Shown here: piece after piece, positions 36,221 through 52,011 of the stretch
Numbering within the stretch: position 1 is the stretch's first letter
How the letters are laid out: each line of letters starts with the position of its first letter
Assembly (NCBI RefSeq): GCF_044324875.1
Contig: NZ_CP172185.1
Reading direction: 5' to 3' (one strand)
DNA length: 64,000 nucleotides
DNA from: Escherichia coli
GTDB lineage: Bacteria > Pseudomonadota > Gammaproteobacteria > Enterobacterales > Enterobacteriaceae
The notes under the pieces: model-generated
Database searches by the model: none
What the model was told of the DNA's origin: nothing
What the model saw: only the letters and a program-made list of their open reading frames with translations
Position numbers and translations under genes: made by a program

Positions 36221-37075
36221 TTAAATAGAGGCTGCGGGTTGCAGACTGACTTTAATGTCAGCTGGTGTCGCGTAATAAGGCGCGGAGGTAATAAAAAGGC
36301 GAATGCCGCAGTCGAGGTAATTTTTGAGTGTTGTCAGATTAATTCCACCGGTCAGAGCCAGCGTGCAGTGAGGAGCCAGCGACGGTGCTATTTGCGCAAT
36401 TTCAGTTGCCTGTTGCGGACTAAATTTGTCGAGCTGAAGTACGTCTGGTTGCGCGCGTAACGCGGCGATTGCCTCTTTCGGCGTGTCGGCTTCAACAACT
36501 ATTTTCTTCTCGGGTGCGTGGCGACGTAACTGATTGATTGCGCCTGACCAGTCCTGATTGTCATGAAGAAAATGACGGTGGTTGGCAAACAATAATATGG
36601 TTTCCGCACATCCGGCACGATGAATCAGTCCTCCGGCAGCCAGAATTGCCTGCGAGGCCAGTAAGCGGGTGCCCGGAATCGCTTTTCGGGTGCAGGCGAT
36701 ATTGCCATCAGGGTAACGTTCACGAAGTAACGCCAGCATTTGAGCGAGATAATCAGAAACACCGCAACTCCACTCCAGCACATTCTGGACTGCCTTCCAT
36801 CCCTGATGAAGTGCTGCGGCATTACCCTGCGCACGGATTAGCCGCTGACGCGCGTTCGCTTGTGAACCGTCGCTGACCGCGTCATCAATAGTTAATCCCA
36901 GCGTAGTTAACATCTTACACGCGACAGAAATTCCGCTGACGCAGCCGCCCTGACGGTGAAAAAACTCTATATAGCCATGCTGGTGTCCAATATTTAATGC
37001 TCGCGTGGTCAGGTCACCGCCCTGGATATCTTCCAGAAGTAACGCATCGATTTGTGCCTGAGAAAGGAAAATCAT
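36221..37075 (-). CDS. ModD-like protein (quinolinate phosphoribosyltransferase fold), 284 aa
   Basis: Family assignment from sequence resemblance recalled from memory; not searched. Confidence 0.55.
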   Translation of the reverse strand: MIFLSQAQIDALLLEDIQGGDLTTRALNIGHQHGYIEFFHRQGGCVSGISVACKMLTTLGLTIDDAVSDGSQANARQRLIRAQGNAAALHQGWKAVQNVLEWSCGVSDYLAQMLALLRERYPDGNIACTRKAIPGTRLLASQAILAAGGLIHRAGCAETILLFANHRHFLHDNQDWSGAINQLRRHAPEKKIVVEADTPKEAIAALRAQPDVLQLDKFSPQQATEIAQIAPSLAPHCTLALTGGINLTTLKNYLDCGIRLFITSAPYYATPADIKVSLQPAASI

Positions 37076-37884
37076 CGCAGTGCCTCTTGCGGTACGCTAT
37101 CCCACCAGATGAGCGCCCAGTCGCGGCTGGCAGGGGCGAGGGCACGAGCATCTTGTTGTTGATACCAGCGATATAACCGCTCACGCTCATCGTCGTTAAG
37201 TGCGCCCAGACTCCAGCTGACGTTCTGCTCAAAACGTTCCCAGGTGCTGTTATCCTGTTGGCAATTTTGTCCACGGATAAAATCAACGTGAGCATAAATT
37301 CCCATCTGATACAGGACGTTGAGCGCAAAGATATAGTTGGGTAATTCGATCACTTCCCGACCAGCCGCCCGCTGAATGGCTGGAGAGACGAACGAGGTGC
37401 TGACCAGATGAGTCGTATAGACGCGAAGCCGTGCCTGATTATTCAGTTTGCTCATTGCCTGGCGCATATCAGCCACCAGAGTGGAGCGGGAAGCCACGGC
37501 AATATCGCAGCGTGGCAGGTCACTCCAGTCCTCTTCCCAGGCGCGCTGGATCCAGTGGACATTGTCTGCCTTTAGCGCGGCGGCGCGACGGGCGGCAACC
37601 TTCAGCATCCCCTGACTGTAATCAACGCCATAAATCGTCGTGAGTTTGTCAGCCAGCGCCAGCGATACGGTACCCGGTCCGCAGCCCATATCGAATAAGG
37701 TCTGCGCGCCTTGCAGATCAATTTTAGCGGTCAGTTGTTGCAGGTAGCTGTCCGTAGGCGAGGCGCAATTTTCCGCCATTTTTTCCGCCCGTTGATCCCA
37801 GTGATCCGGCGTTTTTTCTGTGCGGTGGGCCAGTTTGAGTTGCTGCAGGTAAAGGTCCGCAAAATCAATATCATCAATGAGCAT
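37072..37884 (-). CDS. class I SAM-dependent methyltransferase (270 aa)
   Basis: Motif I-like DMGCGPGT; overlaps the ModD-like gene start by 4 bp. Confidence 0.65.
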   Translation of the reverse strand: MLIDDIDFADLYLQQLKLAHRTEKTPDHWDQRAEKMAENCASPTDSYLQQLTAKIDLQGAQTLFDMGCGPGTVSLALADKLTTIYGVDYSQGMLKVAARRAAALKADNVHWIQRAWEEDWSDLPRCDIAVASRSTLVADMRQAMSKLNNQARLRVYTTHLVSTSFVSPAIQRAAGREVIELPNYIFALNVLYQMGIYAHVDFIRGQNCQQDNSTWERFEQNVSWSLGALNDDERERLYRWYQQQDARALAPASRDWALIWWDSVPQEALR

Positions 37885-37893
37885 GATTGTTCC

Positions 37894-38652
37894 TTAGTGG
37901 CTAATTGCAGAGAGGTGATGATGAATCTGGTCGGCAGAAACCCGATACAGGGCAGCCAGTTTGTTCGTTGTTAACTGTTCGGTCGGTAAGCCTTGTGTTA
38001 CTCGTCCATCTGGCTCTACCTGGATAATGCTGTCGGCAATGGCGTTGGCATGGAGCGGATGATGAGTCGACATTAGCATTGTCATGCCGTTATTTTTGAG
38101 CTGCGCCAGCGTGTCCAGTAGTTGGATCTGATGACCGAAATCGAGGCTGGAGGCAGGCTCATCCAGTAATAACAAGCGCGGTTGCTGGACGAGTGCACGG
38201 GCGATTAAAGCCAGCTGACGTTCACCGCCGCTAAGCGTATTCCAGCGTCGTGTCGCCAGATGCAAAATGCCCAGCTTTTCCAGTTGCTCCGTTGCTTTCA
38301 GGCGTTCTTGCTTACCGGGAACGGAAAAAGCGCCTATGGTGGGGGCCAGGCCCATCAACACCATATCCAGCACACTAAAAGCAAAAACGCCGTCGTGCGC
38401 CTGCGGCACCCAGGCAATAGCCTGCGCGCGTTGGCGATGGCTGAGTGTCTGCACAGGGAGGCTATCCAGTAAGATCTCGCCTTTTCATAACGGTATAACG
38501 CCAAGAATGGAGCGCATGAGTGTGGTTTTGCCGCAACCATTGGCTCCTAACAGACAACAAATTGTTCCTTGCGACAGGGTGAAGGACACGTCGCGTAGCA
38601 CCGGATGGCGGGAGTAACCCAGAGACGCATGACGGACGGCAAGCAAAGTCAC
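37894..38652 (-). pseudogene. FepC/FecE-type ABC transporter ATPase interrupted by an in-frame TGA (stop at 38485..38487)
   Basis: Walker A GANGCGKTT upstream of the stop; ABC signature LSGGERQ, Walker B LLLLDEP and H-loop downstream, same frame. Confidence 0.8.
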
Positions 38653-39629
38653 TGGCGACCTCCGCGTAACAACAAAAACAGGAAAAACGGTGCACCAACA
38701 AAAGCGGTCAGAATGCCAAGTGGGATTTCTGTTGTTCCAATGCTGCGTGCCAGCGTATCGGTAAGCAGGAGCAGAATCGCGCCAGTACACATTGCCATGG
38801 GCAACAGCTGCTGATGGTTATGACCGGTCAACAAGCGAGCAATGTGCGGAACGACCAGGCCGACCCAACCAATTATGCCCGCTATTGCTACCGTGCTGGC
38901 GGTGATTAGTGTGGCGCAGACAATTAATCCAAAGCGCAGACGTGTCACGTTCAGTCCCAGCGAACGGGCTTCGTCGTCGGAAAGCGTGAGTAAATTCATG
39001 CGCCAGCGGAGAAAAAACAGGGGCAAGGAGCCTATGAGAATGATCGGTGCAGCATAGCAGAGATCGCGTAAGGTCACGGTGGACAGCCCCCCCAGCAACC
39101 AGAAGGTAATTGACGGTAACTGGGTGTAAGGATCGGCCAGCGTTTTTATTAGCGATATCCCCGCTCCGCACAACGTTCCTAACGCAATGCCTACCAGCAC
39201 CAGGGTTAAGATCGGATCGTGGCGGGTCACCCGACGCGTAATCAACCAGACGCCCGCGACCACCATCAGCCCGCCGCAAAATGCGTACAGCTGGATGTAA
39301 ACAATGGATAATCCCCACAGGATTGCCGCGCAGGCACCAAGTCCGGCACCGGCGGAGACGCCTAAAATATCCGGTGACACTAAGGGATTACGGAACATTC
39401 CCTGATAGGTGGTTCCGGCCCCTGCCAGCGCCGCGCCCAGAAACAGCGCAGCAAGAATACGCGGCACGCGGATTTGCCAGAAGACAATTTGTTCCTGCAC
39501 AGGAACATTTTCTTGACGAAGAATGAGCGCCAGCAGTTGCTGTATATCGAGATGATAAGCCCCACTTACGGCGGCAAAAGTGATACTGATAGCTGCCAGC
39601 AGCAAAATACATCCGTTTACGGTTCTCAT
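38649..39629 (-). CDS. FecCD-family ABC permease (326 aa)
   Basis: Polytopic membrane protein, typical FecCD/BtuC-like sequence; stop overlaps the ATPase start (GTGA). Confidence 0.85.
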   Translation of the reverse strand: MRTVNGCILLLAAISITFAAVSGAYHLDIQQLLALILRQENVPVQEQIVFWQIRVPRILAALFLGAALAGAGTTYQGMFRNPLVSPDILGVSAGAGLGACAAILWGLSIVYIQLYAFCGGLMVVAGVWLITRRVTRHDPILTLVLVGIALGTLCGAGISLIKTLADPYTQLPSITFWLLGGLSTVTLRDLCYAAPIILIGSLPLFFLRWRMNLLTLSDDEARSLGLNVTRLRFGLIVCATLITASTVAIAGIIGWVGLVVPHIARLLTGHNHQQLLPMAMCTGAILLLLTDTLARSIGTTEIPLGILTAFVGAPFFLFLLLRGGRQ

Positions 39630-40651
39630 TAGCTCGTCACCAATTTTTGATAGTCGGCGTCACTTAATGGGCAATGCCAGAACAGTTGGGCGTAATGCTG
39701 CATGTCACTTTTAAACTGGCGATTGATGGCGGGATCCAGCCAGGCGTGAAGTCTGCGTAATCCCAGAAGACGGTTGATTCCCGGCGGGGCATCCAGCCAG
39801 CCAAAGGGCAGGCCACTTAAAAATAAGATGCGTTGTTCCGCAACCGCTTTCACGCCCTGCCAGAGAGGATCACGACGAATAAAATCTGCAGTAACGGCCT
39901 CCTGAACCAGAATAATATCCGGCTGCCAGCGCAGGAGATTTTCCATGGAAACCTGTGTCAGACCGTGGCGATCGGCTATTTGCGCGACGTTATGCAAACC
40001 TAATAATTCCGCCGCCTCGGTATGCAACGAACCCTGTAAGCCCGTTTCCAGCCCTCGAGGACCGCGCGCAGCATAAAAGCTGAGGTTAGCGGCGGGTGAG
40101 GTGGCGAATGCCTGAGCTTCACCAACGAAGCGGCTGGCGAGATTGGCTTGTTCTGCGGCGCGGTGCTCTTCGCCTAACGTTTTGCCAAGCGTTGTTAACT
40201 GTTCTGCTGATTGTTCCAGTTTCCCGTTAAGCAATAACCAGGGTATTTGTGTCTGTTCGCTAACCTGCCGTGCCTGGGAGATCCAGGTTTCATCCGTATT
40301 GCCGCAATCAACGACCAAATCGGGATGTAACGCCATAAGCCCTTCCAGCGAGAGTGTGCTGGCGCGCCCGGCGAGTCGTCCCAGCCTGGGTAACTGGCGA
40401 ATGTGCTCTGGCAATGGAATTAATGCCTGACGGGCAAAATCAAAAGAGGAAAAACCGACCATTTTTTCTGGCGCGACAGCCAGCAATAGCAAATCGGCGG
40501 GCGCACCTGCGCTGACGATGCGTGTAATGTTTTGGGCTTCGGGAAGCGTCAGTGAGGCCCAGAATTTGACTGATTGTGCAAAAGAAGGCAGATGATGCAG
40601 GAACAACGTCGACGCAAGAATCTGTGTAAACCTCCGTCTGGTTAGTGACAT
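39629..40651 (-). CDS. periplasmic substrate-binding protein (cluster A-2 siderophore/cobalamin-type) with Tat signal (340 aa)
   Basis: N-terminal RRRFTQ twin-arginine motif; first gene of the operon. Confidence 0.75.
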   Translation of the reverse strand: MSLTRRRFTQILASTLFLHHLPSFAQSVKFWASLTLPEAQNITRIVSAGAPADLLLLAVAPEKMVGFSSFDFARQALIPLPEHIRQLPRLGRLAGRASTLSLEGLMALHPDLVVDCGNTDETWISQARQVSEQTQIPWLLLNGKLEQSAEQLTTLGKTLGEEHRAAEQANLASRFVGEAQAFATSPAANLSFYAARGPRGLETGLQGSLHTEAAELLGLHNVAQIADRHGLTQVSMENLLRWQPDIILVQEAVTADFIRRDPLWQGVKAVAEQRILFLSGLPFGWLDAPPGINRLLGLRRLHAWLDPAINRQFKSDMQHYAQLFWHCPLSDADYQKLVTS

Positions 40652-40924
40652 AAGTTATATCCTGATAATTAAAACCGCTATATATTTACATATATATCGA
40701 AAAAAATCATGTTTGATGTCAAAATTTGTCTAAAGAGACAGAATGATTTGCTTGTTGCTTAAATAACACTTTGTTCCACAAGAAAATTGTCAGGGAGAAT
40801 GGCGGAGTGGCAAAAAATATAAATAGAGGTGTAATGATTAACAAATTGATAAAATAAAATTAAAATCTTCTCTGATAAAAGAAAATAAAGGCATAGACCG
40901 TAGAATGGGGGGCATTTCGTGGCG

Positions 40925-40967
40925 AAAAAAGAGCAATGCCAATTTTATGCACATAATGGCATTGCTC
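40925..40967 (-). terminator. terminator-like hairpin downstream of treA
   Basis: 11-bp stem gagcaatgcca / tggcattgctc with long loop, plus-strand A6 upstream. Confidence 0.45.
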
Positions 40968-40981
40968 GATATACAGCAAAG

Positions 40982-42679
40982 TTAAGGCGTAGGTTCCGCC
41001 TCTTTTTGTTTTACCGGCTGTGTTGTTGATTCACTGAGTGGACGCGTCGCCGGAACATTGTCACACGGTTGCTCTTTCGGGCAGAGCAAATCCAGCATTT
41101 TCAGCGTCACGCCATTGGTCCAGCCAAAGCCATCCTGTAATGGATATTCGCCACCGCCGCCCCCTGTTCCGGTGGTGCTGACATCATATTTCTCGACCAG
41201 CTTCTTCTCCCGGTCATAAGTGTGCTGAACATTGGTCAGGAAGTGCCAGCTAATGTCCATCGCCACCTCGTTCTGCCCGTAGTTTTGCAACCCTTCTGTC
41301 GCCACCCATTGCAGGGGAGCCCAGCCATTTGGCGCATCCCATTGCTGTCCACTTTTCACCGACGTGGTGTTCAGGCCGCCTGGTTGCAGCAGATGTGTTT
41401 TCGTCGCCGTCGCCATTTTGTTGGCGCGATCTTTCGCTGCCGCATTGACGTACAGCGGGAACAGGGCGGCAGCGGTTAACTGATTGCGCACTTTATGACT
41501 TTTCAGGTCGTAATCGGCATACCAGCCTTGTTGATCGTTCCACAGGTATTTTTCGATCCCTTTTTGACGGGCATTCGCCAGCGTTTCGTACTGGTTTGCC
41601 ATCGCGTTATCTCCGGAAGCTTTGCTGGCGCGGGCGAGGATTTTTTCCATTTTAAACATCAGGCTGTTCAGATCGACCGGTACGATGCTGGTGGTGCGTA
41701 AGGTATTTAACTGCTGCGGATTGTCCATCCAGCGCGAGCTGAAATCCCAGCCAGACGCAGCGGCAGAGCGCAGGTCGCGGTAAATTTCAGTGGCAGGTCG
41801 ATTCGGATTGCTTTTGGCGGTGGCAATATCTTCCACCCATGACTCTGGTCGTGGCGTATCGCGATCGTCCCAGTAGCGGTTGAGAAGGGTACCATCCTGA
41901 AGTTTTACAACGCGTTTTTCCTGTTGTCCGGCTTGCAGGTTTTCAACACCGTCCATCCAGTAAGCATATTCTTTTTGCATTTGCGGCAGGTATTGCTTCA
42001 ACGCGGCATCGCCTTCATGCTGCGCCAGTAACTCTACCATCAGGGCAAAGAAGGGCGGCTGCGAGCGACTTAAATAGTAACTGCGGTTGCCGTTGGGAAT
42101 ATGACCGTAAGTGTCTATTTCATGAGCAAAATTGGCCACCATATCCGCGACTTTATCCCAGTGACCGCTTTCGGCAAGCCCCAGCATGGTGAAGTAACTG
42201 TCCCAGTAATACACTTCGCGAAAACGTCCTCCCGGCACGACATAGGGTTCCGGTAACGGCAACAGAGAATCCCATTTCTCGGTACTTTCGGTAGAACGGG
42301 TTAACACCGGCCAAAGTCCGTCTATATGTTCGCGTAGTGATTGCCCCTCTGGCGGAACATATTTCTCGCCCTCTTTCGGCAGGGTGAAATTGACGTTAAC
42401 GAAATGGCGCAGATCAAATCCGCTCTGGTTTTGCTGCATCCGATAATCAGCAAGGATCATCAGCGGATCGCTGTTCGGCACGGCATCGGCAAAGGTTTTT
42501 TGGTCCGGAAAAAGTTTGGCGTTTTGCACATCATTAAACAGCGGCCCTAATAAAATATCAGGCGGCTGTGGCGTTACCGGTGTTTCTTCTGCCTGCACCG
42601 ATAGCGCAGCGAAACACAAAAAGATGCAGGTTGGAATTAACGCCATTTTTAGCGGGCGAGAAGCTGCGGGGGATTTCAT
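40982..42679 (-). CDS. treA: periplasmic trehalase TreA (565 aa)
   Basis: Recognisable full-length sequence. Confidence 0.95.
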
Positions 42680-42997
42680 CAATCATTCTCCTTTGGCGAA
42701 ACCGAATAAAACGGTATTCAAGTATCAGAAAACCTTAGTTCAGGATCGCACTAGCTGCATGATCGAAATCTCATTCTGCGAACGGTCAGGCATTTTAGAA
42801 AAGGGAATTAAAGGGATAAATAACGTCGAAATAGAGTGAACAAATAACGTCTGTTTGTTAGCCAGCCAGCGGCGTTGGGTTCGCGATTAGCGAAGAAAAA
42901 TCATCACAAATTGGTGAAAAATATAACAGGTAGTTAAAAACATCCGTGCAGAGTAAATAGCCGGATGACATCAGAACGATGCCATCCTAACTGTGGT

Positions 42998-44416
42998 TTA
43001 ACCCTGACGGCTGAAACGTTGCGTTTTAACGTCCAGCGTTAGCGTTTCTTCTGGTTGTATCGCATACAGTTTCTCACCCTGCTGGCAAATCCAGCCAATC
43101 CCCAGTTCACGGGCGATCAGGGCGCTGTGGGATAGCGGACTTCCGGCGCTAAGGCAGATACCTTTTACAACCGCCGGATCCAGTTGCAGTATTGTGGAGG
43201 GATAGATGTTCTCCGCCAGTAGAATAGTTGGCGAGTTAAACTGCGGGAGTTCTTCTTTCGTTTGGGTCAGGTGGACCAGGGTGCGATGCAGAAGATCGTC
43301 CACATCAATATAGCGAGCCTGTAGATATTCATCATCCAGTTGCTGGTATTGCTGGCTAAGTTCTTTAAGAACTTGCTGCCAGGCATATTCTGCCGTGCAA
43401 TGTTCATGCTGAAGGAGTTCGCTTGCCGCTGCCAGCAGTTCCGGATCATCTAACAGTGTATGGTGACCAGAAAAGATTGCGGCAATATCGTCAAGCCCGC
43501 TGGCTTCTGCTTTCGCTGTTAACGTCATCAGATCTAATAACGTGAAGTCAATGGCCTGGCGTAATCGTTCTTGTTCTTCATCCACGGTCAGGGTTGATTT
43601 TGCCTGTACCGTACATAAAACCGGTTGATAATAAAAGGTTTTACCCGAAACAGGCGGAACGGGACGCAGAATAGGTGGAGCAACTTCCTCCGTTTCACCA
43701 AAGTTATCTTCAGCCAGCTGACGGAAAGCGATCAGTGCCTCTTCAGCTTCTGGCCCTTTCGCAATCAGGCGCAGCGTATCGTTATAGCGAACTTGTAGTA
43801 ACGCAATCTGGTTAATACTCTCCGGTGTGACGCATTTGCCGTTTTTCTCCAGCAACATATCGGCATTAAATGTCGATAAGGTATAAACCAGCCGGGAGGC
43901 CGGACGTACATGCAGGCCGTTACGGTTTTTAATGACCACCGCCAGAGAACGGGCTTCTTCATCGTAGGCAGGACATGACTCAGAGATTTCAGTGTCGGAG
44001 GAGGGTAAACCCAGTTGTTCACGTTTGGCTTCCAGCGCATGCATGGCGTCAAAGATAACTTTGTCGATATCCGCCCCCGAGGCCGCGCTGACCGTTGCTG
44101 CCAGTGTACCTTCGACCAACGGCGCAGCACACAAACGTACTTTTGCGGCGATCTCGGGAGCCAGCAATTCCAGCGCAGTTTCAGCACTCAATAATGCGCT
44201 ACCCATATCCATCATGACCAGCACATGGTCGGCATCGGCAACAGATTCGATGGCCTCCATCACTTTGACGGCATCGGTACCAATGGGATTTTGTGGATCG
44301 TCAATTCCCGCGGCAATGGCGATTTTACAACTATCACTCATTAACATCTGACGGGCTAATTCACCGACACCTTCTCCCAGTCGGCTGCTATGTGAAACTA
44401 TGACCAGGTTTACCAT
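42998..44416 (-). CDS. dhaM: dihydroxyacetone kinase phosphotransfer subunit DhaM (472 aa)
   Basis: Recognisable sequence (EIIA-like, HPr-like, EI-like modules). Confidence 0.9.
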   Translation of the reverse strand: MVNLVIVSHSSRLGEGVGELARQMLMSDSCKIAIAAGIDDPQNPIGTDAVKVMEAIESVADADHVLVMMDMGSALLSAETALELLAPEIAAKVRLCAAPLVEGTLAATVSAASGADIDKVIFDAMHALEAKREQLGLPSSDTEISESCPAYDEEARSLAVVIKNRNGLHVRPASRLVYTLSTFNADMLLEKNGKCVTPESINQIALLQVRYNDTLRLIAKGPEAEEALIAFRQLAEDNFGETEEVAPPILRPVPPVSGKTFYYQPVLCTVQAKSTLTVDEEQERLRQAIDFTLLDLMTLTAKAEASGLDDIAAIFSGHHTLLDDPELLAAASELLQHEHCTAEYAWQQVLKELSQQYQQLDDEYLQARYIDVDDLLHRTLVHLTQTKEELPQFNSPTILLAENIYPSTILQLDPAVVKGICLSAGSPLSHSALIARELGIGWICQQGEKLYAIQPEETLTLDVKTQRFSRQG

Positions 44417-51254: not shown

Positions 51255-52011
51255 ACCACTCCTATATAGTACCCAGGCTATGGGTCTATGGATTTTGTCA
51301 TTTTGTTTAAGTCAATGAATAATATCCTCTTATCATCATGATATTTGTATGGTGCTATCATGATGAGCTGCTCTGAGAATAATTCTCTATTACCGGGCAA
51401 AATCAGGAACACAGGAATTAATATATATTTAACATCCCCCTTACAAAGGTGAGTTTAGATCGAGTTATTCCCTAAGTTGTCGTTACTTATTCCAATTCGT
51501 TACAATGAATATGACAAAAACATTACAACAAACAGCGGTTAAATAATTTGGTGAATATTTTTGGTAATAATCCTAATTGGTTATGGGATTTTCGCTTGAT
51601 GTATCTGCATAACAAAAACAATATGAGCCATTTTTGCATTACTAATAAGAAAAAGCAAAAAACATCGATATTCATTTTTGATCAATGGATTTTCTGGCAT
51701 ATCGTTATTATCGTGATACTGGTTATCATTTTCATCTTGCCAGGATCGCACGTAATCACGTTATTCGGGGATTTTATCTGCGGGATATTACCCTTCAGGT
51801 AAGTCCTTTTCTCGCCAGCATATTGGAGCGTGATCAATATTGATCAGCTGTAAAAAGGTGTCTGATGTGCAGTGGAACACAAACTTACGTTATCTCATTG
51901 CTAATGAGATATCCCTCATCTGAACACTTATGTCTTTAATTATTCTCGTGGTTCACTATAGGCAATAAGCACAAAAGTGTAGGATGTTATAAGAATGGTT
52001 AGGACTCGGTG

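Follow-up and report, generated by a model that had tools for sequence, protein, structure and literature searches.

A Probable Recent Nonsense Mutation in the ABC ATPase Gene of an Accessory Uptake Operon in a Terminal Sub-Lineage of Escherichia coli

Introduction

In type II importers of the BtuCD/FhuBC type, transport across the inner membrane depends on a functional ATPase dimer. The described ATPases of this class include HI1470 (MolC), FhuC, FecE, HmuV, and BtuD, and two of the Haemophilus proteins, HI1470 and HI1472 (MolA), are parts of the MolBC-A molybdate/tungstate importer. Of the stop codons, UGA, which interrupts the gene described here, is the leakiest in E. coli, and low-level near-cognate readthrough of it is possible in any E. 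coli strain. ModD, which is encoded in the same operon as the interrupted gene, has been linked to molybdenum transport and to nif clusters in other bacteria (PMC8594446, PMC8600466).

The window analyzed here, the whole stretch of 64,000 nucleotides taken from contig NZ_CP172185.1 of the E. coli assembly GCF_044324875.1, contains an uptake operon in which the frame of the ATPase gene is broken by a single in-frame TGA. From the comparison of sequences set out below, it is very probable that this stop is a real and recent loss-of-function nonsense mutation, Leu56 TTA to TGA, that arose in one terminal sub-lineage of E. coli. A consensus error, a recoded UGA, and a recurrently struck codon have been weighed as alternatives, each at the point where the evidence bears on it.

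The Operon and Its Putative Substrate

The locus is an accessory chromosomal operon that lies between treA and ymgE/ycgR and is found in 2139 of the 5426 complete RefSeq E. coli genomes (~39%). All of its genes are on the minus strand. The first (39629..40651) encodes an intact periplasmic substrate-binding protein of the Peripla_BP_2 family (PF01497), which RefSeq annotates as an iron ABC transporter substrate-binding protein. It is followed by an intact FecCD-family (BtuC/FecD-like) permease gene (38649..39629), which matches the BtuC, FecD, and FhuB models with E values down to 8e-72 and ends in TGA, and then by the ATPase gene. Downstream of the premature stop are intact genes for a class I SAM-dependent methyltransferase (37072..37884), for the quinolinate phosphoribosyltransferase-like protein ModD (36221..37075; 498 bits against the TIGR01334 cut-off of 179), and, as the last gene of the operon, for a TonB-dependent outer-membrane receptor with a Plug and a beta-barrel (34225..36195). 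The operon partners that are typical for a type II importer ATPase, a FecCD/BtuC-type permease and a cluster-A Peripla_BP_2 binding protein, are thus both present. The original prediction, which had been made from the letters of the sequence, considered the rest of the operon to be intact, and a comparison with strain GN25, in which the other five genes show neither internal stops nor indels, bears this out. The same holds for treA, ymgE, ycgR, and emtA.

The AT-rich intergenic region between treA and the operon (40652..40981, minus strand) is the presumed promoter, with sigma-70-like hexamers at 40844-40816 and 40813-40786. An Rfam search of positions 33500-43200 at E <= 1 returned no riboswitch in this region. 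Near the operon, there is no Fur box within three mismatches of the 19-mer consensus, the sole match in the window being at 51715-51733. The sequence TTGTTAATCATTAC at about 40844-40831 (minus strand), which overlaps the -35-like hexamer, resembles a degenerate Fur half-site by eye only. As TTGTTAATCATTAC failed the three-mismatch search, regulation of the operon by iron is unsupported. A literature search that used gene names and O157 locus tags turned up no publication in which the operon is characterized, and it appears to be uncharacterized. In E. coli O157:H7 OK1, the annotation lists the SAM methyltransferase as an internal-stop pseudogene (6867-7679 of the OK1 locus) while the ATPase is intact, indicating that different lineages break different genes of this operon.

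By NCBIfam models, the ATPase falls with the FecE/HmuV/BtuD/FhuC-type subunits, but it scores under the cut-off of every curated equivalog. Its best scores are 177.3 bits for TIGR03873 (cut-off 372.4), 164 for the HmuV model NF010068 (cut-off 261), and 152 for the FecE model NF008409 (cut-off 375). Since no equivalog cut-off is reached, the substrate cannot be assigned from NCBIfam. ModD is the only component of the operon that scores above such a cut-off. Among the solved single-domain importer ATPases, the closest to the ATPase of the window is HI1470 (PDB 2nq2, E = 8.5e-36), with FhuC (7lb8) at E = 4.1e-34, and the binding protein weakly resembles HI1472. The operon carries an "iron" annotation, and these similarities provide a lead that the substrate may be molybdenum- or tungsten-related, or otherwise not iron.

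Two other loci in the window may be noted. A pair of adjacent ORFs (4259-6558 and 7327-8973; 534 and 232 aa) corresponds to consecutive stretches of AIDA/MisL-type autotransporters and looks like a split ycgH-like autotransporter gene; an IS21-family transposase ORF (548 aa, minus strand) adjoins them. A further ORF of 478 aa (27442-28878, minus strand) adjoins cvrA, is variable between related loci, and has leucine-rich repeats similar to the LRR domains found in two type III effectors, SlrP and SspH2 (E = 2.8e-20), at a score far below the family cut-off.

An In-Frame TGA Separates Walker A from the Remainder of the ATPase

The ATPase gene is a frame of 252 codons on the minus strand, 38652..37894, and the translation of 38655..37891 contains one internal stop. 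It starts with a GTG at 38652 that overlaps the TGA stop of the permease gene as GTGA, and it terminates with a TAA at 37896-37894. The internal stop is the TGA of codon 56 (38485..38487, minus strand; the complement of 38487..38485), and around it the translation reads LLGANGCGKTTLMRSILGVIPL, stop, KGEILLDSLPVQTLSHRQRAQAIAWVPQ, or with the wider left flank, GANGCGKTTLMRSILGVIPL, stop, KGEILLDSLPVQTLSHRQRAQAIAWVPQ. The Walker A motif, GANGCGKT (aa 36-43, 38524-38547), is located on the N-terminal side of the TGA. After the TGA, and in the same frame, follow the Q-loop WVPQ (aa 81-84, 38401-38412), the signature LSGGE (aa 140-144, 38221-38235), Walker B LLLLDE (aa 160-165, 38158-38175), the D-loop, and the H-loop STHH (aa 195-198, 38059-38070). 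The order of motifs that characterizes ABC ATPases, from Walker A through the Q-loop, the signature, and Walker B with its catalytic Glu to the H-loop, is therefore complete in the gene, yet these motifs are not in one unbroken polypeptide, as the TGA falls between Walker A and the Q-loop. The original prediction had described precisely this split, with Walker A before the stop and the signature, Walker B, and H-loop after it, and the translation and motif positions confirm it; the description was accurate, and omitted only the minus-strand orientation of the gene.

The frame is restored by one base, a G to T change on the coding strand at 38486, which gives TTA. Such a single substitution had been predicted to restore a protein of about 252 aa, and in agreement with this, TTA is present in every orthologue examined. 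The pseudogene (37894..38652) shares 758 of its 759 bases with the intact gene of E. coli GN25, and the sole difference is the base at 38486. Chance is not at issue here, since the in-frame stop is unique and every other base of the gene agrees with an intact orthologue (758/759).

Two remnants of the gene can be distinguished. The 55 codons that are still read from the native start (38488..38652, minus strand) contain Walker A and nothing else of the catalytic site. A residual ORF of 186 codons (37894..38454, minus strand) starts at an in-frame GTG 31 nt past the stop and extends from the Q-loop to the H-loop, including the D-loop, without Walker A. No Shine-Dalgarno sequence is recognizable upstream of this GTG at 38454, where the sequence is GGATAGCCTCCCT. 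Gene callers treated both remnants as genes in Logan assemblies, the 186-codon ORF appearing as a separate gene, and the PF00005 domain is assigned to both fragments of the split ATPase as well as to the intact orthologue. The mutation also creates a new ATG (in TTATGA), which opens only an out-of-frame ORF of eight codons and is irrelevant.

The Stop Codon in Logan Assemblies and Its Clonal Placement

The original prediction had proposed that orthologues be used to identify the ancestral codon, and this comparison identifies it as TTA. Codon 56 is TTA (Leu) in GN25, in O157:H7 OK1, in the clone-mates of the window, and in all other intact copies examined. The change in the window is a T to G transversion on the coding strand, equivalent to A to C on the plus strand at 38486, so that the derived base is a coding-strand G. 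Among the 2139 complete RefSeq E. coli genomes that carry the locus, none matches a 71-nt query centered on the TGA at 100%.

A single-base difference from very close relatives, in an allele that no complete RefSeq genome contains, is also what would be seen if the isolate had TTA and the G were a consensus miscall. Several observations argue against a sequencing or assembly error of this kind. The Logan assembly of SRR31073000, a de Bruijn assembly, repeats the window base for base, with 100% identity over 20,561 bases and the TGA included, an agreement that is independent at the level of the assembler, though both assemblies may come from one read set. The exact 186-aa fragment that follows the stop is encoded by three Logan contigs, two of them in addition to that of SRR31073000, and by no NCBI protein record, a pattern that a pseudogene annotation by NCBI would produce. 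On this assembly evidence, the stop very probably exists in the DNA itself and did not arise during assembly. Furthermore, errors in a long-read consensus are typically not substitutions. Contig ends at codon 55/56 in Logan and ENA data were considered as a sign of heterogeneity or of a systematic miscall and rejected: they are no commoner there (49 blocks) than at control codons 34, 54, and 67 (37, 63, and 62 blocks), and these similar counts indicate that the breaks are the background of fragmentary assemblies.

The clonal context of the base at 38486 provides a further argument. A look-up of the exact TreA protein of the window identified NCBI draft genomes, among them GCA_044682645.1, along with 21 further similar places. 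Over 14.6-21.7 kb these drafts share 99.98% identity with the window, and they have TTA and an intact 252-aa ATPase. The window differs from these clone-mates at three positions only: 51356, 43639, and 38486. The first of these, 51356, is intergenic and lies about 100 nt upstream of a ycgV-like autotransporter gene. The SNP at 43639, which changes GCC to ACC in dhaM (Ala to Thr, with the frame read by eye), is common to about 20 contigs. Of the three dhaM-variant contigs examined, one has an intact 252-aa ATPase and two end before the ATPase gene, and the 51356 SNP is absent from both of the examined dhaM-variant contigs that reach that position. The SNP at 51356, like the TGA, occurs only in the window and in the 100%-identical Logan contig. 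Read from these SNPs, the branching order is from the clone to a dhaM subclade, and from there to a terminal twig with both 51356 and the TGA. This nested pattern fits real, recent clonal evolution, and it places the G at the tip of a clonal series of SNPs, whereas a miscall would be an isolated oddity. Sequencing error is thus largely excluded by these comparisons, and a TTA in the isolate itself is most improbable. Shigella-type genome decay was considered as a context for the mutation and rejected: the 16-kb neighborhood aligns collinearly with E. coli (99.3% identity) and contains no IS elements, and the clone-mates are ordinary E. coli drafts.

Decoding of the UGA

A genuine UGA might nevertheless be decoded, as selenocysteine or through programmed or otherwise efficient readthrough, such that a functional full-length ATPase is made. 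Residue 56 follows the Walker A helix and is Leu or Ile in solved homologues, so a substitution there might be tolerated, and the allele persists in several read sets. The orthologous codon, however, is the Leu codon TTA and never Cys or Sec, and the TGA occurs in 0 of the 2139 complete carriers of the locus. Neither feature by which a selenocysteine codon would be recognized, Cys or Sec at the homologous position and a conserved UGA, is found. The same holds for programmed readthrough, which would involve a conserved stop with a stimulatory context, as this stop is private to one sub-clone and the sequence downstream of it is plain ancestral coding sequence.

A search for a SECIS-like element downstream of the stop, which had been suggested together with the original prediction, gave a negative result. 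The 81 nt from the stop fold with a minimum free energy of -23.2 kcal/mol, whereas shuffled sequences average -20.9 (z = -0.73) and 37 of 200 of them do as well; no Rfam family, including SECIS and riboswitches, matches positions 33500-43200 at E <= 1. In the same operon, TGA serves as the normal stop of the permease, methyltransferase, and receptor genes. The window also contains prfA and prmC as full-length ORFs of 360 and 277 aa, and both observations argue against an efficiently decoded UGA. Efficient decoding of codon 56 is accordingly very unlikely, marginally more so than a consensus error. The order in which the original prediction ranked the explanations, with a recent pseudogene before a sequencing error and readthrough last, is backed by the ancestral TTA, the one-base difference, the TTA clone-mates, the Logan copy, and the lack of a SECIS.

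Other Knock-Outs of the Same Gene

The mutation in the window is not the only one to have truncated this ATPase. A change of Trp81 from TGG to TAG (541-543 of the contigs examined) is found on several haplotypes, in numerous public read sets (182 index blocks), and also in at least two complete genomes, where 71-nt queries gave one exact match per haplotype, so that this number is a lower bound and not a frequency. PGAP labels the Trp81 TAG copy a pseudogene with an "internal stop". Codon 56 itself is TGA in a contig of SRR3745275 (10166-10168), in a haplotype that is 98.9% identical to the window and has four other differences within the gene, and it is TAA in a contig of ERR4784044 (10166-10168), in an O157-like haplotype that is 97.9% identical to the window. 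The 90% cluster of the ATPase protein includes other truncated and frameshifted members. Still, almost every complete genome with the operon has an intact copy of the gene, and since most carriers keep it, the knock-outs appear to be sporadic and the accessory system dispensable.

Three nonsense events at codon 56 (the TGA of the window clone, the TGA of SRR3745275, and the TAA of ERR4784044), with no true stops at the three control codons TTA35, TTA55, and CAG68, could indicate that the loss is adaptive or driven by a hotspot, with codon 56 struck repeatedly through selection against the importer or because the site is prone to mutation. As read from the sequence, CCGTTATT would become identical to the GCGTTATA repeat that precedes it through a T to A change. 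The numbers are tiny, however, and three events in one of four equivalent codons correspond to p ~0.06 by simple counting. The Trp81 stop is far more widespread (182 blocks), and nonsense alleles are scattered through the gene. That almost all complete carriers have an intact gene argues for purifying rather than positive selection. The TGA may, moreover, have moved between haplotypes by short-tract recombination, the nearest flanking differences being at 38431 and 38838. Adaptive or hotspot-driven loss is, on balance, about as improbable as efficient decoding of the UGA. A related and more speculative idea is that codon 56 is a recurrent target, because loss of the importer is favored in some niches or through a local hotspot created by the GCGTTATA/CCGTTATT direct repeat, while the UGA allele perhaps stays partly functional by leaky readthrough; this too is improbable, and would rank with a consensus error. 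If it were true, the importer, which may take up a molybdenum- or tungsten-related substrate rather than iron, would be subject to a natural on/off polymorphism.

Probable Consequences of the Mutation and Comparison with Known Systems

A real and recent nonsense mutation at Leu56 is thus the preferred explanation for the stop, and its likely consequences can be outlined. Ribosomes would terminate after 55 residues, having made Walker A only, and the rest of the nucleotide-binding domain would either not be made, or start at the internal GTG (38454) and lack a P-loop. Loss of function is the expected outcome because Walker A is separated from the rest of the domain. No functional ATPase dimer would form, and the binding protein and the permease could then not drive transport across the inner membrane. 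The approximately 590 nt left untranslated may, in addition, expose the methyltransferase, modD, and receptor genes to Rho-dependent polarity. Traces of full-length protein could arise by near-cognate readthrough of the UGA, which would be leakage and not a programmed event.

With no secondary lesions in the gene and with intact neighbors, the ATPase gene, as judged from its sequence, is too recently hit for further decay to have set in. The allele is present in at least three read sets and is, therefore, not strongly deleterious, which fits a dispensable operon or residual function. It is an ordinary young pseudogene, the product of a known kind of event, and the same gene already has alleles to which PGAP has given the "internal stop" label. 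The gene should be annotated as a pseudogene (internal stop), and the strain scored as being without a working copy of this accessory uptake system. The SNPs at 43639 and 51356 can serve as lineage markers, and the TGA allele as a clonal marker of the sub-lineage. The locus provides a clean example of a pseudogene at its first step, one substitution away from the intact gene, though the uncharacterized operon, with its ModD and its links to MolBC-A, is more interesting than the stop codon itself.

The closest described event is found in isolate DCE7 (LZG50_RS10995, NZ_CP090611.1, with the ATPase at 2795-3553 of the locus record), where the same gene of the same operon has a nonsense mutation in its N-terminal third and the neighboring genes are intact. 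The two differ in the codon that was struck, which is Trp81 (TGG to TAG) in DCE7 and Leu56 (TTA to TGA) in the window. With E. coli fdhF, in which a UGA is accompanied by a SECIS, the ATPase gene shares an in-frame UGA within a conserved coding frame; unlike fdhF, it has no SECIS hairpin, no Cys or Sec homologue, and no conservation of the UGA. The ATPase resembles those of the type II importers (HI1470/MolC, FhuC, FecE, HmuV, and BtuD) in the order of its motifs and in having a FecCD/BtuC-like permease and a Peripla_BP_2 protein as neighbors. Compared with these importers, the operon in the window adds ModD, a SAM methyltransferase, and a TonB-dependent receptor of its own, and the frame of its ATPase is broken.
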